Positions 24,517 to 44,037 of a stretch of 64,000 bases of DNA are shown here, piece after piece (the stretch's first letter is position 1; every line of letters begins with the position of its first letter). The position numbers and the translations under genes are program-made. This DNA comes from Alphaproteobacteria bacterium (GTDB taxonomy: Bacteria; Pseudomonadota; Alphaproteobacteria; G965222575). The DNA lies in the NCBI GenBank assembly GCA_965222575.1, contig OZ244958.1, positions 448,001 to 512,000 on the forward strand, in the 5' to 3' direction. A model generated the notes under the pieces. That model was given only the letters and a program-made list of their open reading frames with translations, did no database searches and had not been told where the DNA came from.

Positions 24517-24593
24517 AAAATCACTCTTAACAAAACTATGATAAAAACGCTAACATATGCTACTATAACATAATATATAAGCATCACCACCCC

Positions 24594-25232: not shown

Positions 25233-25369
25233 AAAAAAATACACAAAATAAGACTTCTCATGACAAAGACCCTCCACAAAAAGACCGACTTTCTCCATTT
25301 TCTCCTTGATAACAATTGCCATTTCACGCTATAAAATTACCCTAGTAACTTCAAAATCCTCAGGACTAC

Positions 25370-25885
25370 ATGACATACCTCTATCCTTCCTCCTTCGCAA
25401 AAAAAGACCTCCTCACCGTAACCATAGGCAAACTCTTCAAACATAACATACACGCACGCCTGCCAAAACCCCCCTTGCTCATGGTAGATAGAATCCTCCA
25501 TATTAGCAAAAAAGGCGGAAAATTCAATAAAGGAGAGGTCATCGCCGAACTCGATATTAAACCAGATATGTGGTTCTTCGATTGCCATTTCGACCGCGAC
25601 CCCGTTATGCCAGGATGCCTCGGATTAGACGCTCTATGGCAACTCATTGGCTTCTTCTTAAGCTGGACAGGCCTCAACGGAAAAGGACGCGCCTTAGGCG
25701 TCGGTAGAGTCAAATTCTCAGGACAAATCTTGCCAGAAAAAACTTGCATCACTTACCACCTGCACTTCCGACGCTTCATGCTCTCTAAAAAAATCTCCCT
25801 CGGCATCGCTTACGGTACCGTCTCCCATAAAGGAGAAATCGTCTACGAGGCAGAAGACCTAAGAACAGGACTCATTCCAGCTTAA
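25370..25885 (+). CDS. fabA: 3-hydroxydecanoyl-ACP dehydratase/isomerase FabA
   Basis: WFFDCHF..DPVMPGCLGLDALWQL, GKGRALGVG. Confidence 0.96.
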   Translation: MTYLYPSSFAKKDLLTVTIGKLFKHNIHARLPKPPLLMVDRILHISKKGGKFNKGEVIAELDIKPDMWFFDCHFDRDPVMPGCLGLDALWQLIGFFLSWTGLNGKGRALGVGRVKFSGQILPEKTCITYHLHFRRFMLSKKISLGIAYGTVSHKGEIVYEAEDLRTGLIPA

Positions 25886-25937
25886 AACCTCCCCCTCACC
25901 AAAAAGGACAGAAAACCCCCATGCCAACTACCAAAAC

Positions 25938-27163
25938 ATGACAAAAAATCACAATAGACGCGTCGTCATCACAGGAATCGGTATCGTCTCCTGTATCGGA
26001 AATAATACCACAGAAGTCACTCACTCCCTCAAAAACGGCCTCGGCGGTATCACCTCCTGTGAAGCACAAAAACAATTCGGCCTCAAAAGCCAAGTCTCAG
26101 GACGTACCTCCATAGACACCAAAAGCAAAATCGAAAAAAAAATCCGCCGCTTCATGTCCCCATCAAGCTGCTATGCCTTCATCGCCACAGAAGAAGCCCT
26201 GAAAACCGCTAACCTCAATAAAGAAGATATCGCACAATCCCCAAAAATAGGCCTCATCGTCAGTACAGGCGGTAGCTCCGTGGATACAGAAATCCACGCC
26301 GTGAATATCGGAAAAACCAAAGGCGTAAAATTCGTCAGCCCCTTCACCGTCCCAAAATGTATGTCCTCTACCGCCTCCGCTAACCTCGCTACAGCTTTCC
26401 AAATCACAGGCATCTCCTACTCCATCACCGCCGCTTGCTCCACCTCCGCTCACTGCATCGGACACAGCGCAGACCTCATCATCTCAGGAAAACAAGACCT
26501 CGTCATCGCAGGCGGCGCAGAAGAACATAGCGTCTTCTCCTCCATGATGTTCGATGCCATGGGCGCTCTCACCTCACAATATAATCACACCCCTAATACC
26601 GCCTCCCGTACCTATGATAAAGACAGAGACGGATTCGCCATCGCAGAAGGCGCAGGTATCCTCATCCTAGAAGAAAGAGAAAGAGCTCTACGCAGAAACG
26701 CACCACTCTACGCCGAACTCATCGGATACGGCGCAAACTCAGACGGCGATAGCATGGTACGACCCTCCGGTAACGGCGCCGCCCTCTGCATGAAAGCCTC
26801 CCTACAACAAATCACCGAAAACGATATCTCCTATATCAATACACACGGAACCTCAACTCCCGCAGGCGATATCATAGAACTCATGGCTATCAAAAATGTC
26901 TTCAATCATCATATCCCTCCCATCAGCTCTACAAAATCCCTCACCGGACACAGCCTCGGCGCAGCAGGCGCTCACGAAGCCATCTACAGCATCCTCATGC
27001 TACACCACAGCTTCATCGCCCCTTCCATCAATATCCAAAATATGGACGAAAACGCTAAAAACTTCCCCATCATCACTCAACCAACAAACCAACCCCTCAA
27101 CGCTGTCCTGACTAACTCCTTCGGCTTCGGCGGCACAAATGCTTGCTTGGTCTTCAAAAAACC

Positions 27164-27167
<4 letters not shown>
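25938..27167 (+). CDS. fabB: Beta-ketoacyl-ACP synthase I FabB
   Basis: AACSTSAHCIG, HGTSTP, KSLTGHSLGA, NSFGFGG; follows fabA. Confidence 0.95.
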
Positions 27168-28815
<1,648 letters not shown>

Positions 28816-28867
28816 CTAGCTCTCAGTCCACCATACCACTATTATTCTGTCAATAAAGGGAAATACT

Positions 28868-29131
28868 TCACCTCTCCTGTAAGCCAACTACTGATACAAA
28901 TAACCGCTCTTTCTTTGCTTTATAAAACAGCACGCGTCCCGGCTTAAGTGCAAACAAAGTATGGTCCCTCCCCATGCCCACACCCTCCCCCGCATAGGCC
29001 TTTGTCCCACGCTGACGTACCAAAATCTGACCGCTTTTCACCACTTGACTACCAAAAGCTTTCACCCCTAGTCGTCGTCCCGCCGAATCACGACCATTAC
29101 GTGACGAACCCCCTGCTTTCTTAGTTGCCAT
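28868..29131 (-). CDS. rpmA: 50S ribosomal protein L27
   Basis: [29 protein letters not shown]. Confidence 0.98.
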
Positions 29132-29447
29132 CCTGCTCTCCTTCCTTCTCTAAGGGCACTGCCTGAATGCTTTTAATCAATACCAATGTATGAACCGACC
29201 GAAAACCCCTCTTGCGCCGAGAATTCTGACGCCGACGCTTCTTAAAAATACAAACCTTAGGCCCCTTCACCTCTTCCTTCAAAACTTCCCCCTCTACCTT
29301 CCCAGTACGAACTCTTCCCCCCTCAATCAACAAAGCTTCAAAGGGAATCCGCTCCCCAGCCTTCACGCCATGTACCCTATCTAAAGCCAATACCGTGCCT
29401 TCCTCCACCTTGTACTGCTTGCCCCCTCCCTCAATCACCGCATACAT
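29121..29447 (-). CDS. rplU: 50S ribosomal protein L21
   Basis: [30 protein letters not shown]; ATG 29447. Confidence 0.96.
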
Positions 29448-29565
29448 GCCTAACCCTCTTCTGCACAATTATTACCTCATACATTTTCCCCAACAACACA
29501 CTCCCTTGTCAAGCAAACTCTCACAAACCCCAACAAAAAACCCAATAACCCTTACGCCCTCTCCC

Positions 29566-29595
29566 TTGACAAAAACCTAACCTCTTGACTATCAT
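29566..29595 (+). promoter_or_regulatory. Putative sigma70 promoter for dnaN-recF
   Basis: TTGACA-18 nt-TATCAT. Confidence 0.45.
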
Positions 29596-29631
29596 GCTCA
29601 TAACCCAACAAAAAAAAATACCCCCTACAAA

Positions 29632-30756
29632 ATGAAACTCTCCATCGAAAGAGAAAAATTCCTCCCCCTTCTCTCCCACGCAAAATCCCTCGTCGAAAAA
29701 CGATACACAGATACTCCACTTAGCTTCATCCTCCTCAAAACCCTACACGCACAACTCCAAGTCCTCTCCACAGATAGAGAAATCTCCTTAGAACAAACAA
29801 CCCCAGCCAAAATCAACGAACAAGGCTTCATCACCGCAAACGCCCACCAACTCTATAGTATCGTAGAAAAACTACCAGAAGGTAGCCAACTCACCTTGCG
29901 TACCTCTGATAATGGAAATGGCCTCCACCTCTCTTGGGGACGTAGCTTCTTTATCCTCCCTTCCCTACAAGACCCCTTCCCCTCTATCCCTCAAAAAGTC
30001 CCAGATTACCAACTGGAATTCCTAAGCTCCGACCTCCTCAAACTCCTAGAGAATGTCCAATTCTCCGTCCCACGCGAAGATGTCAGATACTACTTAAACG
30101 GCATCTACATCCACAAAGAAAACCCCCAACTCCTCTCCGCTATCTCAACCGATGGACACCGACTCGCTAAAATGTCCCTAGAACTCCATAACCTACCAGA
30201 CTCCCTGCACGGCTCCATCATCCCCAATAAAGCCTGCTTGGAAATTATCTCCCTCTTCAAAAATACCGATGATAAAGAAAAAATCTCACTCTATCTCGAC
30301 CAAAGACGACTACAAATCCGCGCCAACACCTTCTTGCTCACCACAAAACTCATCGACGGAAAATTCCCAGACTACCAAAAAGTCATCCCTCAACAAAACC
30401 ACGCCATCGCTACCATCAACGTCAGTACCTTCAAAAACGCCGTCGACAGAATGATAGTCCTCCTCAACCAACCCACCACCTCAAGAGCTATCACCATTAG
30501 CCTCGAAAATAATACCCTAACCCTAGAAGCCGACTCCCAAGACGGCGCGCGTGGAAAAGAAGAACTCCCCATCGATTACACCGCTCAACCCTTCTCCGCC
30601 TCCTTCAAACCAGACTATATCCTCCAATACTTAAGACAAATTAACTCCTCCGATGTCCAACTCGCCGTCTCCACTGAAAAACCCTCAACCCCCATCATTA
30701 TGCGTCCCCCTAACGCAGAACACGCCCTCTATATCGTAGCGCCTATGCAATCCTAA
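29632..30756 (+). CDS. dnaN: DNA polymerase III beta clamp
   Basis: RYYLNGI, STDGHRLA, KLIDGKFPDY, C-terminal APM. Confidence 0.97.
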   Translation: MKLSIEREKFLPLLSHAKSLVEKRYTDTPLSFILLKTLHAQLQVLSTDREISLEQTTPAKINEQGFITANAHQLYSIVEKLPEGSQLTLRTSDNGNGLHLSWGRSFFILPSLQDPFPSIPQKVPDYQLEFLSSDLLKLLENVQFSVPREDVRYYLNGIYIHKENPQLLSAISTDGHRLAKMSLELHNLPDSLHGSIIPNKACLEIISLFKNTDDKEKISLYLDQRRLQIRANTFLLTTKLIDGKFPDYQKVIPQQNHAIATINVSTFKNAVDRMIVLLNQPTTSRAITISLENNTLTLEADSQDGARGKEELPIDYTAQPFSASFKPDYILQYLRQINSSDVQLAVSTEKPSTPIIMRPPNAEHALYIVAPMQS

Positions 30757-30758
30757 AT

Positions 30759-31862
30759 ATGCAAACCCCTCCCGCCGCTGCTCTCCTCTCTCTTACCCTC
30801 AACGCCTTCAGAAACTTCCATAACCTCCACCTCTCCCTCTCCTCAAAACCCATCCTCCTAACAGGGCCCAACGGAAGCGGCAAAACTAACATCCTAGAAG
30901 CCATATCAGCCCTATCCATCGGTAGTACCTTACGCGGCGAACCCCTCGCCAATATGACACAGTGGGGACAACCTCAATGGCAAATCAAAGCAGATGGAAA
31001 AGCTAGAGAAAACTTCAACCTAACCGCGACTTTCCAAAAAAAAAGACGCCTATTCCAAATCAATGGTCTAAACGCAAAACCCCAGGCTATCGCTCACTTC
31101 ATCCCTCTCATCTGGATCACACATACCATGGAAAACCTCTTCTCAGGTCCCATAGCGCACAGACGGCGATTCTTCGATAGAGCTACCTTCTCCCTCTTCC
31201 CCTCCTACGCCCACCATATCATCTCATACCAAAAAGCCCTCAAACAACGACTCACTCTCCTAACACAACAACAACACTATGACCCCCTATGGCTGGACGC
31301 TCTAGAAAATACCATGGCCTCTCATGGCTCCGCAATCGCTCAAACACGACTGCACATGATACAACAACTCAATGCCTCCCTTAACCAAAATTCCCACCAA
31401 CACTCAACACTCAACGCATACGGATTCCTAGAATCCATCCTACAACTCAAAACACAACAAACCTGTACCGACCTCTTCAAACAAAAACTCAAATCCTACC
31501 GCACAAAAGACCAACTCTCTAAAAAAACACTCGTCGGACCTCACAGAACCGATTACCAAGCCTATCACCACCCCCTCAAAAGAAATGCTGCAAATTGCTC
31601 CACCGGACAGCAGAAAACAATACTCCTAGATATCGTCCTCGCCATGGCTCAAGCCATAGGACGCAAACGAAACCTCCTGCCCATCATCCTCATGGACGAA
31701 ATAAACGCTCACCTAGACCAACAAACACTCCAAAACCTCTGTCAACGCATCAAACACAATAATCAACAAATCTGGATCACCACCACTAACGCTCAACCCT
31801 TCAACTCCCTCAAAGATACCGCTCAACACCTCCACCTCACCCCAACCCCCGAAGACGCTTAA
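30759..31862 (+). CDS. recF: DNA replication and repair protein RecF
   Basis: FRNF, GPNGSGKTNILEAI, RRRFFD, GPHRTD, STGQQK, MDEINAHLD. Confidence 0.96.
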   Translation: MQTPPAAALLSLTLNAFRNFHNLHLSLSSKPILLTGPNGSGKTNILEAISALSIGSTLRGEPLANMTQWGQPQWQIKADGKARENFNLTATFQKKRRLFQINGLNAKPQAIAHFIPLIWITHTMENLFSGPIAHRRRFFDRATFSLFPSYAHHIISYQKALKQRLTLLTQQQHYDPLWLDALENTMASHGSAIAQTRLHMIQQLNASLNQNSHQHSTLNAYGFLESILQLKTQQTCTDLFKQKLKSYRTKDQLSKKTLVGPHRTDYQAYHHPLKRNAANCSTGQQKTILLDIVLAMAQAIGRKRNLLPIILMDEINAHLDQQTLQNLCQRIKHNNQQIWITTTNAQPFNSLKDTAQHLHLTPTPEDA

Positions 31863-33942
31863 TTTTATCCCTCAACCGCGCCGCCGACTCAAACTCCAAT
31901 TCAGACGCCAATACCCGCATCTCTTCCTCTAAAGACTCTATCAGTATGCGCTTCTCACGCGCCCCACCCTTAAACACAGGCACCCTTTGCACTTCCAACC
32001 CCTTCCCCCTCCCCCTCCCCTTCCCCCTCCCCCTCTTCTTCCCCTCTCCCTCAAAAATAGCCGCACCAAGACCTACCGCCTTCTCCACCGTCCGAGGCGT
32101 AATGCCATGCTCCTCATTGTACTCCAACTGCCGACACCGACGCCGACCCGTCTCCTCCAACGCTCTACGCATAGACCCCGTCAACCTGTCTCCATACAAT
32201 AACACCCGACCCGCACTATGACGCGCCGCACGACCCATGGTCTGTATCAATGACGTCTCTGAACGCAAAAAACCCTCCTTATCCGCATCCAATATCGCTA
32301 CCAATGAACACTCAGGAATATCAAGACCCTCACGTAACAAATTAATACCAACTAATACATCATAAACCCCTAACCGCAAATCCTTAATCAGGGATATCCT
32401 CTCTAAGGTCTCTATATCAGAATGAAGATACCGACTCTTTATCGCCCCTTCCTGTAAATACTCCGATAAAACCTCCGCTAGCTTCTTCGTCAATGTCGTC
32501 ACCAAAACCCGACCCCCGCTCAATACCTCCTTTCTTATCTCTCCCAGTAAATCATCAATCTGATAACCCGCACCCCGTACCTCGCAGATAGGGTCTAATA
32601 AACCCGTCGGCCTAATCAACTGCTCCACAATACGACCACTACTCAACGCCTTCTCCCAATCCCCAGGCGTCGCCGATAAAAAAATCGTCTGAGGACGCAA
32701 TACTTCCCACTCCCCAAATCGCAACGGCCTATTGTCTATACAGGACGGTAACCGAAACCCATAGGACGATAAGGTATATTTACGACGAAAATCTCCCCGA
32801 AACATCCCCCTTATTTGCGGCACCGTTACATGAGACTCGTCTACAAAAAGTATCGCATCCGACGGTAAATACTCAAAAAGTGTCGGCGGCGGCGCCCCAG
32901 ACGGACGACCCGTAAGATAACGCGAATAATTCTCTATCCCTTTACAAAAACCACTACACCGCATCACCTCTAAATCATACAACGTCCTCTCCTCTAACCG
33001 CTGCGCCTCTAATAACTTGCCACCTCCCCTCAATACCAATAAACGTTCCTTAAGCTCCCTCCTAATCCCCCCCATCGCCCCCTCAAGAGTCCTCTTCGAT
33101 ACCACATAGTGACTTTGCGGATACACCACACACCGCTCTAAAATCCTCTCCCTCTTCCCCGTCAATACCCCTACTTCCTCTATCAACTCAACCCTTTCGT
33201 CAAATAGCCTAATCCTCCAGTACCTCTCTAACAAATGCGACGCATAAACCTCCAAAACATCCCCCCTCAACCGATACTGACCACGCTCCAACGACAAAAG
33301 CGTCCTCTTATACTGCAATAACGATAACCGACACAACACCTCCTTCAACCGTACCTCCTCCCCAACCTCAAAAATTACCACCAGTGACCCATAAGACGCC
33401 GCATCCCCTAACCCATATAAACACGACACAGACGCCGCTATCAGTACATCACGCCTCTCCAAAAGCGCACGCGTCGCACTATGACGCAACCTGTCTATCT
33501 CTTGGTTAACCGTCGCATCCTTCTCTATATACGTATCACTCCGCGCAATATACGCCTCCGGCTGATAATAATCATAGTACGATACAAAATACTCCACCGC
33601 ATTCCCAGGAAAAAAACCCTTCATCTCCTCATATAACTGAGCCGTTAAGGTCTTATTGTGCGACATTATCAACCCAGGACGACCCGTCCGCGCTACAACT
33701 TCCGCCATGCTAAAAGTCTTCCCAGAACCCGTCACCCCTAATAATACCTGATTGCGTACCCCCGCCTCTAACCCAGCTATCAACCCCTCTATAGCTTGCG
33801 GCTGATCCCCACAGGCTGAATACGAAGACACCAACTTAAATGGGGGCGAACGCTTCTTATACTCAACCCTAGGTGCCTCACTCCGCCACACAGAACCAGA
33901 CTCCATCAACAATAACGCACGCTTATACGCTTCTTCTTCCAA
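31837..33942 (-). CDS. uvrB: Excinuclease ABC subunit B
   Basis: GVTGSGKT, YFVSYYDYYQPEAY, DESH, GINLLREGLD, C-terminal UVR domain. Confidence 0.98.
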   Translation of the reverse strand: MEEEAYKRALLLMESGSVWRSEAPRVEYKKRSPPFKLVSSYSACGDQPQAIEGLIAGLEAGVRNQVLLGVTGSGKTFSMAEVVARTGRPGLIMSHNKTLTAQLYEEMKGFFPGNAVEYFVSYYDYYQPEAYIARSDTYIEKDATVNQEIDRLRHSATRALLERRDVLIAASVSCLYGLGDAASYGSLVVIFEVGEEVRLKEVLCRLSLLQYKRTLLSLERGQYRLRGDVLEVYASHLLERYWRIRLFDERVELIEEVGVLTGKRERILERCVVYPQSHYVVSKRTLEGAMGGIRRELKERLLVLRGGGKLLEAQRLEERTLYDLEVMRCSGFCKGIENYSRYLTGRPSGAPPPTLFEYLPSDAILFVDESHVTVPQIRGMFRGDFRRKYTLSSYGFRLPSCIDNRPLRFGEWEVLRPQTIFLSATPGDWEKALSSGRIVEQLIRPTGLLDPICEVRGAGYQIDDLLGEIRKEVLSGGRVLVTTLTKKLAEVLSEYLQEGAIKSRYLHSDIETLERISLIKDLRLGVYDVLVGINLLREGLDIPECSLVAILDADKEGFLRSETSLIQTMGRAARHSAGRVLLYGDRLTGSMRRALEETGRRRCRQLEYNEEHGITPRTVEKAVGLGAAIFEGEGKKRGRGKGRGRGKGLEVQRVPVFKGGAREKRILIESLEEEMRVLASELEFESAARLRDKIKRLRGLG

Positions 33943-33946
33943 CCCC

Positions 33947-34816
33947 TTACCCTCTCTTCCTCTCCCTTAACACCAACACAACAAATAACAACACACTCAG
34001 CACCAACACACTCAACCCAAACAATAACGTCCCAATCCCTCCTCCGCGCTCTAAAAAAACCGCACCCCCATAACGCATCCATAACCACTCCCTCAGTCCT
34101 TCCTCCCCTAAACCCCCAGCCGCTAAAGACTTAAGCTTCATCTTCAAATCTAACGCAAGAGGCGCAGACGAATCCCATAAAGTCAATCCCTCGCATTGTA
34201 GACACTCAAGGGTCTTAAAAAACGATACCAAATCTCCCTCCTCCACTATATCCCTCTTACCCTTTCTACCACCCGCTCCCCTCTCCAAAACTACCAACTC
34301 CTCTTTCTCCTCTCCTTTTATCCACGGCCATAAATATCTCTTAATAACATCCAATGTCAAACCACCATGCAGTATCGTCACAACCCGCCCCTCCTCCAAT
34401 AAAACCACCGCCGGGACATCCAAAACCCCCATAGAAACCAAAACTTCCCCCTCTTCATCTTTCCCAACCTCATCATAAAGACCCCCACCAAAACCCCATT
34501 CCTCATCCTTATACACCAACGCAACTAACTTAATACCAGCCGCATCAATATATTCCTTCAACCCCCTAAACACTTCCACATCTAAAACCGACTCCCTCGA
34601 CCAAGACGCTACCACATGAACAATCACCCCCCCTGTCCCAAAAACCCCTTTCTCCAATACCCCACCCCCAAAACTACGTACTGCTACATCCCAAGACACC
34701 GCCGGGTGAGACACTGTTATCTCTCTTTTCCGCTCCTTAAACAAGGACAACAATAACCCCAACGCTCCCACACCAAACAATACCACACACACACTCAACA
34801 CCAATACCCTAAACAC
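33947..34816 (-). CDS. Fused CcmG(DsbE)-like thioredoxin (CxxC lost) and CcmH(CycL) domain protein
   Basis: N-terminal TM, VASWSRES in place of ASWCxxC, GVLDVP cis-Pro-like motif, then LECLQC..DSSAPLALDLK..RYG and a C-terminal TM; follows ccmF. Confidence 0.75.
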   Translation of the reverse strand: MFRVLVLSVCVVLFGVGALGLLLSLFKERKREITVSHPAVSWDVAVRSFGGGVLEKGVFGTGGVIVHVVASWSRESVLDVEVFRGLKEYIDAAGIKLVALVYKDEEWGFGGGLYDEVGKDEEGEVLVSMGVLDVPAVVLLEEGRVVTILHGGLTLDVIKRYLWPWIKGEEKEELVVLERGAGGRKGKRDIVEEGDLVSFFKTLECLQCEGLTLWDSSAPLALDLKMKLKSLAAGGLGEEGLREWLWMRYGGAVFLERGGGIGTLLFGLSVLVLSVLLFVVLVLRERKRG

Positions 34817-36674
34817 CCAAACCCTTCCTCCTCCCCCTCCTAAAAACCGACACCAACACAGACCCCCCCATCACTAAGGCTCCCAACCATATCAAATCAA
34901 TCAAAGGCTTGTAAGAAACCTGTACCAAATATCTCAACCCCTCTCTCCCCGCGCCGCGCGTGTTAATAGCCATATGGACATGAGACGGAAATACCCGCAC
35001 AAAATCCGATTCCCACGTTTGGGCTAAAGGCGCCTTATAATACCTCAAAGACGGCGATAACTTAAAGGGAGGCTTTCCCGCAGATTCCCCCTCAAATGTC
35101 GTCACAAGTGACTGATAATTCTCCCCCTCCTCCCAACGCTCCTCTACCATCTTAAGAGTAATGCCCGCAACCTCAATATGCTCTCCTACTTCCAAAATCT
35201 CCTGCTTCGTCACCTCCAACCCTTGCGACGCTATCCCCAATAAACTCACGCACACCCCAACATGGGCAAACGAACGCACTGTCAATACAAGTCCCCGACC
35301 TTCCCATAAACTCCCAATAATCCCCCAAAAACTCACTGCTACCCAAAACAATACCAAAAAACCCCCGCCTTGCCACCGCCAAAACAAATACGTCAACCCT
35401 AACGATACCACCAATCCCCATAACAACGGCTTCACCCGTTCCCTCCCCACAAAACCCCTAGACGATACAACAGGCATCATCACCAAAAATACCCCCATAG
35501 GTAACAACAACATCGTAAAATACTCCTCCCCCAACGCCACAGGTAACGAAAAAAATACCCCAGAAATCACAGGCCACAATGTCCCCATCAACACAACCAC
35601 CGCAATAGCACATATCCAAAGACACTGACCCAATAACACCAGCACACGAACACTCATCACCTCCCTACGCCAACGCCTCAACCCCGGGCCCATCACCACA
35701 GACACAACACTCACTGCAAAAAATACTAGAAAAATCATCAACAAAATTACCCCACGCGTCGGCGACGACGCAAACCCATGTACCGATACCAATACCCCGC
35801 TCCTCACCAAAAACATCCCCATCAAAACTGACAAAAAAGGGAAGCCCAATAAACTCATTAACAAAACACCAAAACCCCCTCCCACCGCATACAAATGAAG
35901 AACCCCTATCACTAAAAGCCATGGCATAAGCGCTACCGTCTCCACAGGATCCCAAAACCACCAACCCCCCCAGCCAAGCTCGTAATACGCCCAATAAGAC
36001 CCTAACGCTATGGCTATAGTCAAAAACCCAAACGCTCCCCTAAGCCAACCCCCTAAACCCCTAACTACCTCAACACCCCTAAAACACCCTAACAACCCAA
36101 CACTAAACGGCACAAGTAACAATGCCGCTCCTAAATAAAAAAAAGGGGGATGAAACGCTAATGACGGATCCTGCAAAATCGGATTCAACCCCGACCCCTC
36201 CAATACAGACTTTACCCCCCTAAAAGGCGACGAAAATACACTTGACAACAAAACAAACGATAAAATTACACTCCCCATAATCCCTAACACATATCGCTTC
36301 CCCTCTAAACTCCCTCCCCCGCCGCCAACAAAACTCCACACCACGCGCACAAAACACAACATCATCAACCACAACAATAACGACCCCTCATGATTCCCCC
36401 ATACCCCAGCTACCCTATACAAAAGAGGCTCCCCCTCATGACTATGACGCCACACCAACCACAAAGACAAATCCGTACCAACAAAACCCCACAGCAATAC
36501 CAAAAAACTCACAACACACAAAACAAGTGCTACCACACTCATCTCACGCTGAAGAAAAAAAATACCGCCTCCCCTCAATACGCCCCCCACACGCACAAAA
36601 CCCAATAACACAACGAAAATCTCTACTAACAAGAGACTCCATAAAACAACATCTCCTAAAACCCCCAACATCAC
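34809..36674 (-). CDS. ccmF: Cytochrome c-type biogenesis heme lyase CcmF
   Basis: WGNHEGSLLLW, GLNPILQD, HPP, WAYYELGWGGWWFWDPVE, SVHGF. Confidence 0.96.
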   Translation of the reverse strand: MMLGVLGDVVLWSLLLVEIFVVLLGFVRVGGVLRGGGIFFLQREMSVVALVLCVVSFLVLLWGFVGTDLSLWLVWRHSHEGEPLLYRVAGVWGNHEGSLLLWLMMLCFVRVVWSFVGGGGGSLEGKRYVLGIMGSVILSFVLLSSVFSSPFRGVKSVLEGSGLNPILQDPSLAFHPPFFYLGAALLLVPFSVGLLGCFRGVEVVRGLGGWLRGAFGFLTIAIALGSYWAYYELGWGGWWFWDPVETVALMPWLLVIGVLHLYAVGGGFGVLLMSLLGFPFLSVLMGMFLVRSGVLVSVHGFASSPTRGVILLMIFLVFFAVSVVSVVMGPGLRRWRREVMSVRVLVLLGQCLWICAIAVVVLMGTLWPVISGVFFSLPVALGEEYFTMLLLPMGVFLVMMPVVSSRGFVGRERVKPLLWGLVVSLGLTYLFWRWQGGGFLVLFWVAVSFWGIIGSLWEGRGLVLTVRSFAHVGVCVSLLGIASQGLEVTKQEILEVGEHIEVAGITLKMVEERWEEGENYQSLVTTFEGESAGKPPFKLSPSLRYYKAPLAQTWESDFVRVFPSHVHMAINTRGAGREGLRYLVQVSYKPLIDLIWLGALVMGGSVLVSVFRRGRRKGLGV

Positions 36675-36698
36675 ACACAGTCTCCTAATACCAATCTT

Positions 36699-37127
36699 TC
36701 AGATAACAACATAAAAGGACTTCAGATAAAACGGCAATAACGGCTCAGACAACGGCCTATAGGTCTCATCATGCTTCGCTAACACCCGCTCTGCAACAAA
36801 TACCCCCGCGCTCGATACCCACCGACCCTTCACCACTACCAATTGACCCTCCCTAAATAAAGACGGCAGTAAACCCCCATACCTCACCCGTAACCGCGTC
36901 CGACTATCCTTTATCTCAAAAATAACCCAAGCTCCCTCTTCCTCAACACTCCCCACGCATACCTCACCCGCTACCTTCAATACTCCACCCCCTCGTATCA
37001 ACTCCTCTTGCGACGGAAAAACAAAAAACGAAACCGTCCTGCTAATAGAAAAAACTAGCAACAATACCCCCAACACTACTAAAAAACACAACAACACAGT
37101 AACCCTAAAACCCACAACAACCCTCAC
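36699..37127 (-). CDS. ccmE: Heme chaperone CcmE
   Basis: LPSLFREGQ and LAKHDETY heme-binding motif. Confidence 0.93.
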   Translation of the reverse strand: MRVVVGFRVTVLLCFLVVLGVLLLVFSISRTVSFFVFPSQEELIRGGGVLKVAGEVCVGSVEEEGAWVIFEIKDSRTRLRVRYGGLLPSLFREGQLVVVKGRWVSSAGVFVAERVLAKHDETYRPLSEPLLPFYLKSFYVVI

Positions 37128-37999
37128 CTCAACCTCACAAGCTTAACCCCTAATAACCCCATCATCAAATACCCCAATCCTAACCCCACTAATAACAACG
37201 CACTCAACACCACTAACGAAAAAGACCAAACCAATCCCACTCCCAATAATACAAAAAACCCTATCAACCACAACACCAACACCACGACACTCCAAAACCT
37301 CATCCTCCATAAAAAAGTCCGATTAAAGGCACTGCCAAATACCAAAAATATCCCCAACCCATACAACCCTAACGCTACCACTAACAACGGTAACAACATC
37401 GAATAAGAAATCGTTGAAGAAGACAAATCCCTAAATACCACACTCGCTCCCTGATGCAAGGTATTCCACCACTCCACTGAAAACTTGATAATAGGAAGAT
37501 TAATCCCTCCCAATATCCCTATCACACTCGCCCCATACAGTCCCTTCTCCCCAATAGCTAACCGCGGTATCAACAACACCACAATATACAAAAAAAATAA
37601 CACCAACACAGAGGTCAACCTCCCATCCCATACCCACCACCACCCCCACGTAAACCGTCCCCATATAGACCCCGTCACCAAACACAAAAAAGTACTCATA
37701 CATCCCACACGCGCCGTGGATAACAAAAGCCTGCCTAACCCTTCTCCCCTCTTCAAACAATACAGTACCCCAACCACGCACAACACCACATAAAGCGATA
37801 AACTCAACCACGCATACGGTACATGAAGGTACAGTATCCTAAAAACTTCCCCCTGAACATAATCACTAGGCGTCAAAAATAATCCCCAAAATAATCCCCA
37901 TATATACAAACTTACCCCCAATACCCCACACATACTCAACACCCACGATAACACCAATACCCGCACCCCAATTCCTCCCTCTTGATAAAACCTATCCAA
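37124..37999 (-). CDS. ccmC: Heme exporter CcmC with extra C-terminal TM segments (possible CcmD fusion); start uncertain
   Basis: RILYLHVP, WGRFTWGWWWVWDGRLTS (WWD), SVEWWNTLHQ. Confidence 0.92.
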   Translation of the reverse strand: MDRFYQEGGIGVRVLVLSWVLSMCGVLGVSLYIWGLFWGLFLTPSDYVQGEVFRILYLHVPYAWLSLSLYVVLCVVGVLYCLKRGEGLGRLLLSTARVGCMSTFLCLVTGSIWGRFTWGWWWVWDGRLTSVLVLFFLYIVVLLIPRLAIGEKGLYGASVIGILGGINLPIIKFSVEWWNTLHQGASVVFRDLSSSTISYSMLLPLLVVALGLYGLGIFLVFGSAFNRTFLWRMRFWSVVVLVLWLIGFFVLLGVGLVWSFSLVVLSALLLVGLGLGYLMMGLLGVKLVRLR

Positions 38000-38060
38000 T
38001 CACTTTATAATACCCCCTTAATACTTCAACAATCAACTTCCTTCTCCCACACGTCTCCCC

Positions 38061-38825
38061 ATGAGCTACCTCCTCGCCATACAAAATTGCTCCCTCTACT
38101 TCAACACCTTTTGCGCCTTAAACAATGTCTCCCTCAAAATCCCTAACGGAAAAATCTCCGGACTCATCGGACCAAACGGCGCCGGCAAAACAAGCCTCTT
38201 TAACTGCATAAACGGACTCTATAAACCCTCACAAGGACATATCCTCCTAAACCACCACGGCAACATCACATCCCTCCCACCTCACAAACGAACCGCACTC
38301 GGTATCACCCGTACCTTCCAATACCCCTCCATACCCCCACATATCTCCACCGCCCAAGCCGCCTCCACAGGCTCCTACACCCTCTTCCAATCCTCCCTCA
38401 TAGACACCATCTTCAACTCTAAACGCTACAAACATCACAACTCACAACACAAAGAATGGACCTCCTACACCCTCAACCTCTTAAACCTCTCTCACCTCAA
38501 AAACCAACAAGTCCAAACCCTCACCTTCGTCCAAAAAAAACAACTCGAAATCGCTCGCGCTATCACCCCTAATACCAAACTCCTACTCCTAGACGAACCA
38601 GCTACAGGCCTCTCTATAAACGAAATCTCCTCCTTCAAACTCACCATAAAACGTCTCCAAAAAAAACTCAACCTCTCCATCCTCATGGTCGAACACAACA
38701 TGACCCTCGCCCTCGATATCTGCCAAACCCTCTTCATCCTCAATAACGGTAAACTCATCGCCAACGGAACACCACACTCTATCCAGCAAAATAAAATCGT
38801 CCAAAAAGTCTACTTGCTCCAATAA
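38061..38825 (+). CDS. Branched-chain amino acid ABC ATPase (LivG-like)
   Basis: GPNGAGKT, GITRTFQ, LLDEPATG, VEHNM, VQKVYL. Confidence 0.9.
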   Translation: MSYLLAIQNCSLYFNTFCALNNVSLKIPNGKISGLIGPNGAGKTSLFNCINGLYKPSQGHILLNHHGNITSLPPHKRTALGITRTFQYPSIPPHISTAQAASTGSYTLFQSSLIDTIFNSKRYKHHNSQHKEWTSYTLNLLNLSHLKNQQVQTLTFVQKKQLEIARAITPNTKLLLLDEPATGLSINEISSFKLTIKRLQKKLNLSILMVEHNMTLALDICQTLFILNNGKLIANGTPHSIQQNKIVQKVYLLQ

Positions 38826-38834
38826 CCTGACAAC

Positions 38835-39506
38835 ATGAAACATATCCTCTCTATTAACCTCACTTGCGTAAGACAAAAACAACAAGTCCTCACCAATATC
38901 AACTGTACCCTCAATACCCACCACATCACCCTCCTAACAGGACCAAACGGCGCCGGCAAAACAACCCTCCTAAACTGTATCTTCAACCTCATCCCCTACA
39001 ACGGATTAGTCCTCTTCAACGGACACAACCTCTCACAACTCCCTCCACAACGCATACCCCCACTAGGACTCGCTTACATCCCAGAAAATAAAGGACTCTT
39101 CCCAGAACTCACCGTTAAAGAAAATCTCTCCCTAAGCGGACACAACACAAAACGAACCCTACGCAACAAAACCCTCAACCACCTCCTCAACCTCTCCCCC
39201 TCCCTCAAAAAAAAACAACACCTACAAGCCGGGTTCCTCTCAGGCGGCGAACAGCAATACCTCGCCGTCCTCAAAACCCTCATGATGAACCCTAAACTCC
39301 TACTCCTAGACGAACCCCTAAATGGCCTCTCCCCTAAATGGAAATCCTCCCTCCTCAACCTCCTCAAAACCCTCAAACAAAACGGCATGACCATCCTCAT
39401 GGCGGAACAACCTAGCCCCCAATGTAAAAAAATCACCAATACCACCTGGACCATCAACAAAGGACACCTCCAAAACCACCCCACCTCCCAACATGTGGAT
39501 ACATAA
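38835..39506 (+). CDS. Branched-chain amino acid ABC ATPase (LivF-like)
   Basis: GPNGAGKT, LSGGEQQ, LLDEP, AEQ. Confidence 0.9.
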   Translation: MKHILSINLTCVRQKQQVLTNINCTLNTHHITLLTGPNGAGKTTLLNCIFNLIPYNGLVLFNGHNLSQLPPQRIPPLGLAYIPENKGLFPELTVKENLSLSGHNTKRTLRNKTLNHLLNLSPSLKKKQHLQAGFLSGGEQQYLAVLKTLMMNPKLLLLDEPLNGLSPKWKSSLLNLLKTLKQNGMTILMAEQPSPQCKKITNTTWTINKGHLQNHPTSQHVDT

Positions 39507-40368
39507 TCTCGTTCTCATCCTCTCAAACGGCAGTATCTATGCCCTCATCGCCCTCGCCCTGGTCATGATCCATAAATCCACCGGCCTCATCAACTTCGCT
39601 CAAGGCGAAATGGCTACCTTCAGCACTTACATTTGTTTCTCCCTCATTACCTTCTTCCACCTCAACTACTGGGTAGCCTTCTGCCTCACCCTCCTCCTCT
39701 CCTTCCTCTTAGGACTCTCCATAGAACGATTCCTCATCCGACCCCTCTACAAACACATCACCCTCAACCACTTCTCCGTCATCACCCTCTTCATCGGCCT
39801 CATGATTACCTTCCACGCCTCCACAGGAGTCCTTTGGGGCTTTGGAACCTTCCCTTTCCCTTCCCCCTTCAAAACCATAGACTCCCACCTCATAAGCGGA
39901 CACCACTTAGGCATTGCTCTTCTAGCTGCCCTCCTCTTCCTTGCTCTCTTTCTTTTCTTTCGCTACACCTCTATGGGCCTCAAAATGCGCGCCGCTGCAC
40001 AAAATCCTCAAGCCTGCACCCTCATGGGTATCTCCGTCAACCAACTCTACAGCTTAGGATGGGGACTCGCCGCTGCCCTCGGCGCCATAGCAGGACTCCT
40101 CACAGCCCCCATGGTCTTCCTCGCTCCAGATATGATGATGGCAACCTTCATCTATGGATTCGCCGCCGCTCTCATCGGCGGACTCAATAGCCCCCTCGGC
40201 GCTACCCTAGGCGCTTTCCTCCTCAGTACAACTGAAATCCTCATCATCCAATACATCCCAGGATTCGGTACCGTTATGAAACTCCCTCTTGCTCTCCTCT
40301 TCATCGTTTGCCTCCTCATCCTCAAACCAGAAGGACTCTTCAATAAAAAAAATCCTCAGCGCGTCTAA
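39493..40368 (+). CDS. Branched-chain amino acid ABC permease (LivH-like)
   Basis: GSIYALIA, INFAQGE, GLKMRAAAQN, AALIGGL. Confidence 0.92.
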   Translation: MWIHNLVLILSNGSIYALIALALVMIHKSTGLINFAQGEMATFSTYICFSLITFFHLNYWVAFCLTLLLSFLLGLSIERFLIRPLYKHITLNHFSVITLFIGLMITFHASTGVLWGFGTFPFPSPFKTIDSHLISGHHLGIALLAALLFLALFLFFRYTSMGLKMRAAAQNPQACTLMGISVNQLYSLGWGLAAALGAIAGLLTAPMVFLAPDMMMATFIYGFAAALIGGLNSPLGATLGAFLLSTTEILIIQYIPGFGTVMKLPLALLFIVCLLILKPEGLFNKKNPQRV

Positions 40369-40371
40369 CCC

Positions 40372-41328
40372 ATGACCTCTAAACTCCTCCTCCTTATCCT
40401 TACCTGCGCACTCCTGCCTCTCTTCCTCTCAGATTACACCCTCTTCCTCTCCGTCTCCCTGATAGGATGGGCTATTGCCCTCTTCGGCCTCAACTTCGTC
40501 ATGGGGTTAAGCGGGCGATTCACCCTGGGCTCTAACGCCTTCATGCTCCTAGGCCTCTATACCGCCACCATCAGTATCAATTCCGCAACGGGTGCCCTCA
40601 TCGCTCTCACCACCGCCACCGCCATAGGCGCCTTAGCCGGACTCCTCTTCGGACGACTCACCACCTCCTTAGAACAAGCTTCCCTCGCCGCCGCCACCAT
40701 CGCTCTCGCCCTCGCTTTCCCCCCGCTCCTCAAACACCCAGCCTTCGAACCCCTCACCGGCGGCGTGCAAGGACTCCACATCCAGAACCACCTCTTAACC
40801 CTCCTTCCTTTTCAGACCATACCCCTATCTGATACCCTCCTCTTTTGGCTAGCAAGCGCTCTCCTCCTCCTTACCGCTCTTACCTTCCACCGTATCAAAA
40901 TAAGCCCCCTAGGGCCCGTCTCCGCTTCCCTACAGCACAACCACATGGTCGCTCAAGCCATAGGAATCAATACTGCCAATATCAAAACCCTCTTCTTCTC
41001 CCTAAGCGGCGCCTTCTGTAGCCTCGCAGGTGCCCTCATCGCCCTCACTACCAAATTCGCCTCCCCTGATAGCTTCGACCTCTTCACCTCTATCTCCCTG
41101 CTGGTCGGCCTCACCATCGGCGGACTCTCCTCCACCAGCGGGCCCATCATAGGAAGCCTCTTCCTCTTCTTCGTCCCAGACCTCGTCGCAGAATACCTCT
41201 CAAAAACCGCAACCTGGGCCCTCTATGGACTCCTCCTCATCCTCGCCGTCTTCCTCTTCCCAAAAGGCATAACAGGTAGCCTACACCGCCTCCCATCAAC
41301 CCTACGACTCCTCTTCCCAAAGCGGTGA
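40372..41328 (+). CDS. Branched-chain amino acid ABC permease (LivM-like)
   Basis: GLNFVMGLSG, TGGVQG, GPIIG, PKGI. Confidence 0.88.
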   Translation: MTSKLLLLILTCALLPLFLSDYTLFLSVSLIGWAIALFGLNFVMGLSGRFTLGSNAFMLLGLYTATISINSATGALIALTTATAIGALAGLLFGRLTTSLEQASLAAATIALALAFPPLLKHPAFEPLTGGVQGLHIQNHLLTLLPFQTIPLSDTLLFWLASALLLLTALTFHRIKISPLGPVSASLQHNHMVAQAIGINTANIKTLFFSLSGAFCSLAGALIALTTKFASPDSFDLFTSISLLVGLTIGGLSSTSGPIIGSLFLFFVPDLVAEYLSKTATWALYGLLLILAVFLFPKGITGSLHRLPSTLRLLFPKR

Positions 41329-41985
41329 CTCTATCTTCAACAAAAGCTCCTTCCGACGACGCAACTCTTCCTCTGTCAATGCCTCAACAAAACCACGCCT
41401 CTCAATCACCGCCTCATCACCACCACTAGCCAACACAACCGCCGCCTCTTTCCTTCCTACCTCCTCAGGTTCCCCCGCTTTCTCAAGACACATCTTCCTA
41501 TAAACCTCCGCCAATAACTGCGCATCCAGTAAAGCCCCATGCTTCGTGCGCTTAGACAAATCTACCCCATAATACACGCAAAGACTATCCAGCGACACAC
41601 GTTGCCCAGGAAGCTTCTCCCGCGCAATCTGTAGCGTGTCTATCACTTCATTCTTCAATTCCCCCTCACCGCTCTCCTCAAGCTCCCTCTTCAAAAACGA
41701 TAAATCAAAGGGCGCATTATGTATAATAAGAGGACTCTCCCCTAAAAAAGACAAAAATGCCGGCATTATTTCCTTAAACAACGGCTTGCCCTTCAGAAAA
41801 TCATCGGATAAACCGTGAATCTTCACCACCTCCTCCGGTACCGACCGACAAGGATCAAGATAACACGAATACTCCTTCCCCGTTAACCGACCATCTAATA
41901 TCTCAACAGCCCCTATCTCCACTATCTTATGTCCCTCAAGAGGACTCAACCCCGTGGTCTCCGTATCTAACGCTATCAACCGCAC
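41302..41985 (-). CDS. dnaQ: DNA polymerase III epsilon subunit
   Basis: LDTETTG, HNAPFD, HGALLDA. Confidence 0.97.
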   Translation of the reverse strand: MRLIALDTETTGLSPLEGHKIVEIGAVEILDGRLTGKEYSCYLDPCRSVPEEVVKIHGLSDDFLKGKPLFKEIMPAFLSFLGESPLIIHNAPFDLSFLKRELEESGEGELKNEVIDTLQIAREKLPGQRVSLDSLCVYYGVDLSKRTKHGALLDAQLLAEVYRKMCLEKAGEPEEVGRKEAAVVLASGGDEAVIERRGFVEALTEEELRRRKELLLKIESPLWEEES

Positions 41986-42569
41986 ACACGCTTCTCCTTC
42001 ATAACCGACAACACTATAGTTTGTACCTCTTCCTTCAGCCTGTAAAGAGATAACTCCCCTGAAATCCTAAAATCTACACACAACGGCGGTTTCTTATCAT
42101 GACGCAACACAAGCACTTCCCATGGAAAAAAAACCCCACGACCCTCATAACGACGCCGACACACCTCTAAAGAAGTCTCTACATAAACCGTATAGTCCAC
42201 TTCCTTCTCCTGACCCAATTCAAACAAAAGCGGTAACTCCAAAAACACAACCTCCACTGAGTGGGCAAGTGAAGACAAAAACCGCTGCCGATAATCTCTA
42301 ACCAACGGGTGAACAAGAGACTCCAATACCTCTAACTCATGCAAGTTCTCCTTCAAAAACTCCCCTAGCTTCCCTCTATCCACACACCCACTCCCCCCCA
42401 TCAACCCCCGCTCCTCAAAATACCGTAGTACACACTCCTCAACTCGATAAATCTTCCGAACCGCCTCATCCGATGACCAGCTAACGCCCCCAACACACGC
42501 CTCAAGACACGTCTTCACTACCAAACTCTTGCCAGCAGCAGGATAGCCCGTCACCCCTAACAACAACAC
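41976..42569 (-). CDS. coaE: Dephospho-CoA kinase
   Basis: GVTGYPAAGKS, LESLVHPLV, ELPLLFE; GTG 42569 chosen to avoid overlap with maf. Confidence 0.88.
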   Translation of the reverse strand: MLLLGVTGYPAAGKSLVVKTCLEACVGGVSWSSDEAVRKIYRVEECVLRYFEERGLMGGSGCVDRGKLGEFLKENLHELEVLESLVHPLVRDYRQRFLSSLAHSVEVVFLELPLLFELGQEKEVDYTVYVETSLEVCRRRYEGRGVFFPWEVLVLRHDKKPPLCVDFRISGELSLYRLKEEVQTIVLSVMKEKRVCG

Positions 42570-42589
42570 ACCACCCCTTCCCCCACGCC

Positions 42590-43204
42590 TCACGACACCA
42601 CCACCCCTTCCCGCCTCAAAACCTCCAAAAGCCCCAACAACGGTAACCCCTGTATAGCAAAAATATCCCCTTCTATCCTCTCCATCAAGTGCAACCCTAA
42701 CCCCTCTATAGCACCACCCGCTAGCATCTCCAATCCCAATGCCCCCACCTCCGCACAATACCCCTCAATAAACCTCTCCCCCAACACCCTCATCTTCAAA
42801 AGCGGACTCTCCACTGCACTCCACAACACCTCCCCACCACGTGCTAACACCACAGAGGTATGAAGATAATGCTCCTGTCCACTTAAAACCCGAAGCTGTT
42901 CCCTCAACTCCCCCATACTCCGCGCCTTCCTAAAAACACAACCTCTACACTCCAACACTTGATCCCCTCCTACCACATAGGCAGACCCCCTCTTTCGCGA
43001 CACACTAAGTGCCTTCTTCTTCCCTAAATGCAAACTCATCCCCTTCCCGTCTCCTTCCCTCATAAACTCCCTCCCCTCAACACCCTCATCTACCTCAGAC
43101 AGCAAAACCTCAAAAATAAGACCCAACCCCTCTAATAAACGACGACGCACTACACTACCAGAGGCTAACACCAACTGCTCAGAAGACACCTTCATAAACC
43201 CCAT
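42590..43204 (-). CDS. maf: Maf family nucleotide pyrophosphatase
   Basis: LVLASGS..RRRLL, GGDQ, LSGQEH, IQGLPL. Confidence 0.92.
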   Translation of the reverse strand: MGFMKVSSEQLVLASGSVVRRRLLEGLGLIFEVLLSEVDEGVEGREFMREGDGKGMSLHLGKKKALSVSRKRGSAYVVGGDQVLECRGCVFRKARSMGELREQLRVLSGQEHYLHTSVVLARGGEVLWSAVESPLLKMRVLGERFIEGYCAEVGALGLEMLAGGAIEGLGLHLMERIEGDIFAIQGLPLLGLLEVLRREGVVVS

Positions 43205-44037
43205 CAGCCCCCCCTCTCCACCTTCCGCTTCTCCAAAAAAGAAAAAATCTGCGACGCCGTCTCCTCCACAGACTGATAAGTCACATTCAAACTAATCCAA
43301 CCATTACGATTGAACATACGCTTCGCCCTTGTAACTTCCTCCTCTATGGACTCCTCACGCGTGTAACTATTCCCCCTGTTACTAGCCTTAACCCCTATGC
43401 TATCAAACCGCTTCTTCCGTATCTCCCTCAACCGCAAAGTCTCCACCATCAACCCTATCACAGGACAACCTGCCTCCCTCAAAACCTCCTCAGGAAACCC
43501 CTCCTCCAACACAAAAGGCACATTCGCAGCCCTCACTCCCTTATTCGCTAAATACAAACACGTCGGCGTCTTCGACGTCCGCGATACCCCAACCAATATC
43601 ACCTCAGCTCCCCCTATACTCCTCAAATTCTTTCCATCATCATGATTTACACAAAACTCTATGGCCTCTATCTTCCTAAAATACGATACATCTAAACTAT
43701 GTTGACGACCGGGCTCCTTCTTCGAAACCTGACACAAATACCCCTCCATTAAAACCATCAACGGACCTAAAACTCCATAAACCTGAAGTCCCAACTCCCT
43801 CCCGCGCCTTTCTATCTCTTCCTGTATCTCCTTCTTCACCACCGTCGTAATAATTATCCCAGGGAGACGCTCTATCTCCTTGAAAACCTCCAAAACACGA
43901 CGCTTCGTCTTCACCTCGTTCCACCGCACAGACCGCGGCTCCTCTAAAAACTGAGACAACACAGCACGACCCAACAAAGTTAACGTCTCTCCCGTCGAAT
44001 CCGATATAAAATACACAACCCTTTCCACGCGCTTCAA
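43204..44037 (-). CDS. PEP synthase/pyruvate,phosphate dikinase regulatory protein (DUF299)
   Basis: ISDSTGET, HDDG, GVSRTSKTPT, ANVP, SVEETA. Confidence 0.94.
   Translation of the reverse strand: MKRVERVVYFISDSTGETLTLLGRAVLSQFLEEPRSVRWNEVKTKRRVLEVFKEIERLPGIIITTVVKKEIQEEIERRGRELGLQVYGVLGPLMVLMEGYLCQVSKKEPGRQHSLDVSYFRKIEAIEFCVNHDDGKNLRSIGGAEVILVGVSRTSKTPTCLYLANKGVRAANVPFVLEEGFPEEVLREAGCPVIGLMVETLRLREIRKKRFDSIGVKASNRGNSYTREESIEEEVTRAKRMFNRNGWISLNVTYQSVEETASQIFSFLEKRKVERGG

Follow-up and report, generated by a model that had tools for sequence, protein, structure and literature searches.

The subject of this analysis is a stretch of 64,000 nucleotides from an alphaproteobacterial contig (OZ244958.1, positions 448,001 to 512,000), called the window hereafter, and in particular the open reading frame (ORF) at positions 33947..34816 of its minus strand, directly downstream of ccmF in a gene cluster for cytochrome c maturation of the System I type. 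The ORF encodes 289 amino acids and ends with a TAA stop at 33947-33949. It is present in a single copy in the genome, which consists of one contig of 1,215,846 bases with 97.64% completeness. The encoded protein reads as a fusion of a CcmG-derived thioredoxin-fold domain, in which both active-site cysteines are replaced by serine, with a CcmH domain in which the CxxC pair is kept. An earlier note, written from the letters of the window, had proposed this architecture. The single intact frame of 289 codons after ccmF, the thioredoxin/CcmG type of the N-terminal domain, the change of WCxxC to WSRES with its codon positions, the intact CxxC of CcmH and the charged linker between two membrane anchors were all borne out by the results given below.

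The start codon is GTG, in an 8-nt overlap with the ccmF stop, and a Shine-Dalgarno-like purine-rich run (GAGGAAGGG) lies about 6-8 nt upstream of the start. The composition of its sense strand is A.20, C.07, G.41 and T.32. Because of this G/T-rich composition, stop codons arise easily, and the probability of 289 open codons calculated from the composition is 3.4e-9. Over 20,000 shuffles, the longest open stretch was 170 codons, with a median of 48. The assembly was also checked over 33850-34950 against the contigs of public runs, which are not raw reads, and rare variants could escape such a check. The contigs of one public run are identical to 33850-34950, and this run may be the source of the assembly. 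In a second sample of the same study the contigs extend over all of this region, with 2 nucleotides substituted and no indels; 34000 G>T changes L273 to M, and the other substitution, 34211 G>T, leaves the protein unaltered. Two further studies contributed low-depth fragments, which were unchanged over 34216-34366, which covers the linker, and over 34589-34739, which covers the SRES codons, and the low-depth fragment 34342-34522 had one change. A stop between the two domains, which would undo the fusion proposed in the earlier note, was found neither in the contigs of the two samples nor in the linker fragment, the samples being represented by contigs and not by raw reads.

We therefore treat 33947-34816 as a real, intact single-frame fusion. 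An assembly or sequencing artefact, or a dead pseudogene, might be suspected from the extreme base composition of the region and from the CcmH match itself, which is the weakest match to PF03918 among the 316 CcmH-positive genomes of a class-wide sample (E 4.6e-10) and so the most divergent CcmH of that sample. However, the contigs of two samples agree apart from the two substitutions, the fragments of two further studies match at the linker and the SRES codons, and an open frame of this length is improbable by chance. This is also the sole CcmH in a genome that retains ccmABCEF and two c-type cytochromes. Hence, we consider an artefact or a dead gene highly improbable.

The hydropathy of the 289-amino-acid protein gave exactly two hydrophobic segments, residues 1-28 and 258-287. 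The first is an N-terminal transmembrane signal-anchor (34733..34816; minus strand, as for all parts of this gene), where the hydropathy exceeds 1.6 in the windows starting at residues 1-10 and AlphaFold2 (AF2) predicts a helix at residues 2-26. It is followed by the CcmG-derived thioredoxin-fold domain without periplasmic cysteine, assigned to residues 29-170 (34307..34732) from hidden Markov model (HMM), AF2 and Foldseek results. In this domain W72-S73-R74-E75-S76 (34589..34603, TGG TCG AGG GAG TCG) occupies the WCxxC site, with SRES running from 34600 to 34589. A charged inter-domain linker at residues 171-192 (34241..34306) is disordered in the AF2 model, where the predicted local distance difference test (pLDDT) value is below 50 at residues 175-190. 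The CcmH periplasmic domain comprises residues 193-257 (34046..34240), as supported by Pfam PF03918 and AF2 helices, and contains L203-E204-C205-L206-Q207-C208 (34193..34210), in which the CxxC is kept and a conserved Arg is replaced by Glu. The protein is completed by a C-terminal transmembrane helix with a basic tail (residues 258-289, 33950..34045), for which hydropathy and AF2 agree. No signal-peptide-like or hydrophobic stretch was found in the linker by hydropathy, so the CcmH domain alone would have no export signal. The fusion is thus predicted to be functionally necessary in the present gene, with the export of the CcmH domain depending on it.

The AF2 model has a mean pLDDT of 80.6. 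Residues 60-170 reach about 90 and follow the beta-alpha-beta order of a thioredoxin fold, and the CcmH region is predicted as helices at 193-201, 219-233 and 238-253 with a transmembrane helix at 261-288. The alignment behind this model (A2) includes true CcmG sequences, and the confident fold depends on it. When the model was compared with the PDB by Foldseek, CcmG structures came first (1KNG, 2B1K, 1Z5Y_E and 3KH7/3KH9), with target TM-scores of 0.60-0.74 overall and of 0.65-0.74 for the first three.

The ancestry of the N-terminal domain is also indicated by direct comparison. An HMM built from the CcmG proteins of 13 relatives, from which the window's own protein was excluded, matched residues 11-170 over HMM positions 10-175 (E 2.4e-7, 29.9 bits), and its sole other match in the genome was a cytoplasmic thioredoxin. 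One of the 13 rows (L018), kept in the test, comes from the unpublished genome G040; G040 and G214 in the genome tallies of this study are both unpublished. The CcmG of the relative G009 aligns to residues 11-169 with E 1.8e-6, and the NCBIfam models dsbE and ResA give weak matches with E 0.006 and 0.008, respectively. In the relatives, ccmG is a separate gene directly upstream of ccmH. WSRES coincides exactly with WCxPC in alignment A1, and both cysteines are present in 13/13 relatives. The only cysteine outside the CcmH CxxC is C10, within the N-terminal membrane helix. Since C10 is intramembrane and serine occupies both active-site positions, the periplasmic CcmG domain is without a thiol.

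In the relatives, 37 columns are conserved to at least 80%, and the domain retains 16 of them, including A70, S71, W72, Y102, D104, G111, D120, G123, G130, V134, P135 (the cis-Pro), G152 and P164. Besides the two cysteines, the lost columns include N67, F69, P81, G133 and E136 among others. From these columns the thioredoxin core appears retained and the parts specific to CcmG, which would face its partners, appear eroded. The protein resembles CcmG/DsbE in having a periplasmic thioredoxin fold behind a predicted N-terminal anchor and a position in the ccm cluster with ccmH. It falls short of the definition of CcmG, however, at its active site, in its family score, in the motifs typical of CcmG and in its reductant partner.

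The codon argument of the earlier note, which had taken the Cys-to-Ser changes as a sign of selection, stood in part. The observation that both serines are encoded by TCG was dropped, as TCG accounts for 58 of the 203 Ser codons in nine genes of this strand (TCT 54, TCC 8, TCA 16, TCG 58, AGT 58, AGC 9); the supposed cysteine bias was dropped with it, as cysteine forms 1.0% of the protein and is not enriched. The part that stood concerns the substitution step. A change from Cys to Ser via TCN needs G-to-C at codon position 2, where C has a frequency of 12% on the strand, and the replacements favoured by the G+T bias (Gly, Trp and Phe) are absent at both active-site positions. The pattern suggests selection for a conservative replacement, and nothing beyond it.

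The CcmH domain is recognised by the Pfam model PF03918 at residues 191-287 with 37.6 bits (cut-off 25), and there are weak direct sequence matches to the CcmH structures 2KW0 (E 0.007) and 2HL7 (E 0.024). When the whole model was searched by Foldseek, no CcmH chain was among the matches listed (ranks 1-49 of at least 500). Among 17 CcmH sequences, 17 columns are at least 80% conserved, and the domain retains 11 of them, including C205, C208, D215-S216, A221, D223 and R248-Y249-G250. The change of Arg to Glu in the LRCxxC motif is a point absent from the earlier note. An Arg stands before the CxxC in at least 121 of the 132 CcmH matches obtained in the database search described below. Apart from this Arg, the protein passes as a CcmH.

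The genes around the fusion belong to System I. Directly upstream lies ccmF (34809..36674, minus strand), which encodes the heme lyase with the WWD motif (Pfam Cytochrom_C_asm and CcmF_C; TIGR00353 283.8 bits), and then, on the same strand, ccmE (36699..37127; Pfam CcmE 73.9 bits), with the His-type heme-binding motif KHDETY, and ccmC (37124..37999; 291 amino acids; Pfam 89.8 bits). Elsewhere in the genome, ccmA (124.4 bits, just below the cut-off of 131.6) adjoins ccmB (104.3 bits). As to clients, 19 ORFs of at least 70 amino acids contain CxxCH, and two of them are cytochromes, namely cytochrome c1 (Pfam 244.8 bits) and a membrane-anchored Cytochrom_C protein, both with a single heme. The genome also has one DsbB (746040-746672) and two tandem DsbA-like (Thioredoxin_4) genes at G000:C1:1029643-1030911 on the plus strand, with the active sites CGAC and CTSC.

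The earlier note had asked what else of the pathway the genome holds, and of the parts it named, only DsbA and DsbB were found. There is no second CcmG in the genome; the other thioredoxin-like proteins are TrxA, a leaderless AhpC/TSA-Redoxin protein and the two DsbA-like proteins. CcmI was found neither with TIGR03142 nor by phmmer with the CcmI of three relatives. For DsbD/CcdA, Pfam DsbD_TM has no match in the genome at E<=10, and an HMM of CcdA from 10 relatives reached no better than E 0.4 when run with filters off against 13,052 stop-to-stop ORFs. A tblastn match of CcdA at genome positions 437182-437502 (E 0.011) lies antisense to a long plus-strand ORF and was rejected. The suggestion that the DsbD/CcdA relay may not be needed here therefore fits the genome. 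By gene content, System I in this organism has its clients and an oxidising DsbA/DsbB pair, and the reducing relay is absent. The TLC ATP/ADP translocase model (PF03219) likewise had no match in the genome, but it had none in the 14 control genomes either and so carries no information on lifestyle.

We then consider how unusual this arrangement is. A HMMER search of 1.84 billion cluster representatives found no close relative of the protein. It gave 132 non-self matches at E<=0.001, the best with E 2.3e-11 and 35% identity in the CcmH part, and nothing above 35-39% identity, which again refers to the CcmH part only. When the full-length protein was used in a word-indexed search, the 8000 candidates that were scored contained no match other than itself. 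The 132 matches contain seven CcmG-CcmH fusions (P0006, P0010, P0012, P0017, P0059, P0064 and P0120), with 19-25% identity to the window protein and 1-3 members per cluster, which looks like separate fusion events. In these proteins the domains follow the same order and are joined by a short non-hydrophobic linker, and all seven keep both WCxxC and xRCxxC. One of them, P0017, comes from a metagenome-assembled genome (MAG) of Rickettsiales, where it is annotated as CcmH. In a search with P0017, both domains were matched in only one of the 120 listed matches, P0017 itself. In the same listed matches, a CcmG without CxxC was found in 0 of 119 CcmG cluster representatives. To the question of the earlier note whether the architecture is already common, the answer is thus divided. 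Judging from these searches, the fused architecture already exists elsewhere, rare and scattered, but the cysteine loss in a retained CcmG fold was not seen elsewhere and is the new and unusual part. In the literature, we found no description of a natural cysteine-less CcmG or of a CcmG-CcmH fusion, with subscription journals mostly outside the coverage. A side observation from the same database is P0002, a protein of 226 amino acids with two tandem CcmH-like domains and the motifs MSCPIC and LRCVVC.

The loss of the relay could be followed within the class. CcmH is present in 316 of the 401 genomes of the class-wide sample. DsbD_TM was tested in a chosen subset of 40 relatives, 51 CcmH-bearing genomes picked by small size or a weak CcmH score, and 6 more, so that the counts are not frequencies. 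It is present in 33 of the 40 relatives and in 48 of the 51 picked genomes. The genomes that are positive for CcmH and negative for DsbD_TM are G091, G011, G407, G105, G015 and G176. In G091 (95% complete, 210 contigs) and G011 (77% complete) a canonical CcmG is present, and these two are probably merely incomplete. The other four, G407 (100%), G105 (99%), G015 (95%) and G176 (91%), have CcmH and no CcmG, and only TrxA-sized ORFs match there. All four have the arrangement ccmF-ccmH(-ccmI), and in G407 (locus L055) and G105 (locus L054) the gene order is ccmF-ccmH-ccmI with nothing between. The CcmH genes of the CcmG-less genomes are at L055 1498-1863(-), L054 1483-1803(-), L073 1342-1842(+) and L074 1462-1947(-). 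From these genomes, the loss of DsbD/CcdA together with CcmG, with CcmH kept, appears to recur in this class.

The residue before the CxxC of CcmH is E in the window genome, Q in G407, I in G105, K in G015 and Y in G176. Thus a residue other than Arg stands there in 5 of the 5 genomes that are without DsbD_TM and without a thiol-active CcmG, a correlation that covers at most 4 families and in which relatedness is uncontrolled. In G288, which belongs to the family of G015 and G176, DsbD_TM is present, there is only a weak dsbE-like match, and the residue is Y. On the basis of the correlation, the Arg of the LRCxxC motif may serve the interaction between CcmG and CcmH.

Part of this picture can be set beside known systems. 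According to excerpts of PMC3601427, E. coli CcmG with Cys-to-Ser changes at one or both cysteines supports low-level maturation, and thiol compounds restore the wild-type level (Fabianek et al. 1998, cited there), while a thiol-less CcmG of Rhodobacter capsulatus binds apocytochrome in vitro (Turkarslan et al. 2008, cited there). The excerpts thus contain the background of a cysteine-less holdase on which the earlier note had relied; a holdase role for the window protein is our extension of it. The same excerpts list as open questions of System I the role of CcmG beyond electrons and the contact of CcmG or CcmH with apocytochrome, and they report no obvious CcmG in plant mitochondria.

When compared with CcmG/DsbE (CycY, HelX; 1KNG, 2B1K, 3KH7), the window protein has in common the N-terminal anchor, the periplasmic thioredoxin fold, the ASW...YKD...V-cisPro framework and the position before ccmH. 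It differs in having Ser for both cysteines, in lacking the GNPY insert and the N-terminal CcmG segment, in scoring far below the family cut-off, in being fused to CcmH and in having no DsbD/CcdA to reduce it. The Cys-to-Ser CcmG of E. coli and the thiol-less CcmG of R. capsulatus are likewise thiol-free and are thought to contact apocytochrome as a holdase; however, those cells keep DsbD/CcdA, whereas the window case is natural, fused to CcmH and without a relay. With CcmH (PF03918; the three-helix bundle with LRCxxC; 2HL7, 2KW0), the second domain shares the CxxC, DS..APLA, RYG, the predicted helices and the C-terminal transmembrane helix, but it has no signal peptide of its own, Glu in place of Arg and the lowest Pfam score of the 316. 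The seven other CcmG-CcmH fusions share its domain order, but they keep the two cysteine motifs.

Two systems without a redox-active CcmG and without DsbD/CcdA are described in the excerpts of PMC3601427. The System I of plant mitochondria keeps CcmH and has no CcmG fold. The four CcmG-less genomes G407, G105, G015 and G176 are, by analogy, the bacterial counterpart of this system. System I* of Desulfovibrio and archaea has no CcmH and a Cys-type CcmE. In the window genome CcmH is kept, CcmE is of the His type (KHDETY) and a dead CcmG fold persists; by the first two of these, its gene set is not that of System I*.

We propose that the N-terminal domain is a non-redox module, which binds or positions the CXXCH segment of apocytochrome and in addition anchors CcmH for export; our confidence in this proposal is evenly balanced. 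The genes ccmG and ccmH, which are separate and adjacent in the relatives, have merged here to give one membrane protein with an anchor at each end. It consists of an N-in anchor, followed by the periplasmic CcmG-like domain, the linker, the periplasmic CcmH domain and the C-terminal anchor. In the proposed course of events, the thiol relay from DsbD/CcdA through CcmG to CcmH would have been abandoned. The CcmG domain would then hold or position the apocytochrome CXXCH beside the CxxC of CcmH and CcmF, as a holdase or scaffold, and its anchor would replace the export signal now missing from the CcmH domain. As there are just two clients, each with a single heme, direct heme attachment might mostly outrun oxidation by DsbA. 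The cysteines of CcmH might take care of the remainder, provided that their disulfides are resolved by small thiols with no protein relay.

The full form of this proposal is that a redox-dead CcmG, joined to CcmH, is kept as a dedicated apocytochrome holder; System I would then work here with thiol activity confined to CcmH and without reductant delivered across the membrane, despite the presence of DsbA/DsbB. We put it forward tentatively and with less than even confidence. If it is true, the chaperone role of CcmG would be separable from its reductase role and would outlast it. Also, the conserved Arg of CcmH would possibly exist for docking the redox-active CcmG, because it is absent in all 5 genomes without DsbD/CcdA and a thiol-active CcmG.

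A number of observations weigh against the holder proposal. The family model TIGR00385 dsbE gives only 16.2 / 16.9 bits against a cut-off of 123.15. When residues 55-172 were folded by AF2 as a single sequence, the pLDDT was 44.6. The N-terminal segment PSALIGKPxPxF is unrecognisable, with pLDDT 47-55 there; the GNPY motif is GGLY with a deletion of 6-7 residues; and the cis-Pro loop GVPET is DVPAV, in which only V-P remains and the Glu after the cis-Pro is gone. The CcmG domain is eroded more (16/37) than the CcmH domain (11/17), and the CcmH motif is itself atypical, with LECxxC in place of LRCxxC. The presence of DsbA/DsbB means that the periplasm should be oxidising. No full-length CydD (TIGR02857) was found in the genome, where there were only ATPase-domain matches below the cut-off, and no reductant source or thiol exporter was identified. 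Finally, the four same-class genomes dropped CcmG entirely with DsbD/CcdA gone, which speaks against a need for CcmG in that state.

Several of these points favour a different explanation, in which the function of CcmG was lost after the loss of DsbD/CcdA and the domain is a decaying relic, serving CcmH only as an anchor and spacer. The four CcmH genomes without DsbD_TM and without any CcmG, the smaller share of conserved residues in the CcmG domain, the vanished CcmG-specific motifs with the very low family score, and the CcmH domain without its own signal peptide would all be expected of such a relic. On the other hand, about 140 codons have remained open on a strand whose composition should give a stop roughly once in 15 codons. 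The structural core residues that survive include Ala70 and Pro135, both encoded with the rare base C. Both cysteines were replaced by the isosteric Ser and not by the bias-favoured Gly, Trp or Phe. A spacer could also shrink, as can be seen from the short linkers of the other fusions. We regard the relic explanation as the main rival and a serious possibility, but one that we would not expect to hold.

The domain might also have some other non-redox role, for example as a structural subunit which docks the CcmF/CcmH synthase or CcmE. The retained thioredoxin core with remodelled partner-facing parts, the charge reversal from Arg to Glu at the CcmH motif and the translational coupling to ccmF by the 8-nt overlap are consistent with such a role. 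Nevertheless, nothing points to a particular new partner, and in the excerpts of PMC3601427 CcmG stands outside the core synthase, so that we consider a docking role unlikely.

Returning to the holder proposal, its interest lies in the kind of evidence that it would supply. The evidence for a non-redox CcmG has so far come from laboratory Cys-to-Ser mutants, and the window protein is a natural version of them. It offers a natural test, as it combines a retained fold and a tether to CcmH with the loss of both the thiols and the upstream reductant carrier. Together with the four same-class genomes that have neither CcmG nor DsbD, it forms a small natural series on the parts of the thiol branch. 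The case rests on one lineage, which has neither close relatives nor an experimental system.

Some minor observations were made in the neighbourhood. CcmC is extended at its C-terminus by a hydrophobic stretch of about 60 residues (37124-37330, minus strand). No separate ccmD was found, and there is none between ccmC and ccmE. The extension has no Pfam match, which is a weak test for a protein as short as CcmD, and CcmC may be a CcmC-CcmD fusion. On the other side of the fusion gene, uvrB has a TTG start 4 nt past the fusion stop on the same strand (33942-33949), and the ccm genes and uvrB may be co-transcribed. Across 24000-44000 of the window, the GC skew of the plus strand is -0.37 to -0.62, independent of gene direction; it falls sharply near 44 kb and is patchy across the genome. 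In the same interval, G, V, L, F and W are abundant in the proteins of the minus strand, and P, T, Q, H and N in those of the plus strand.

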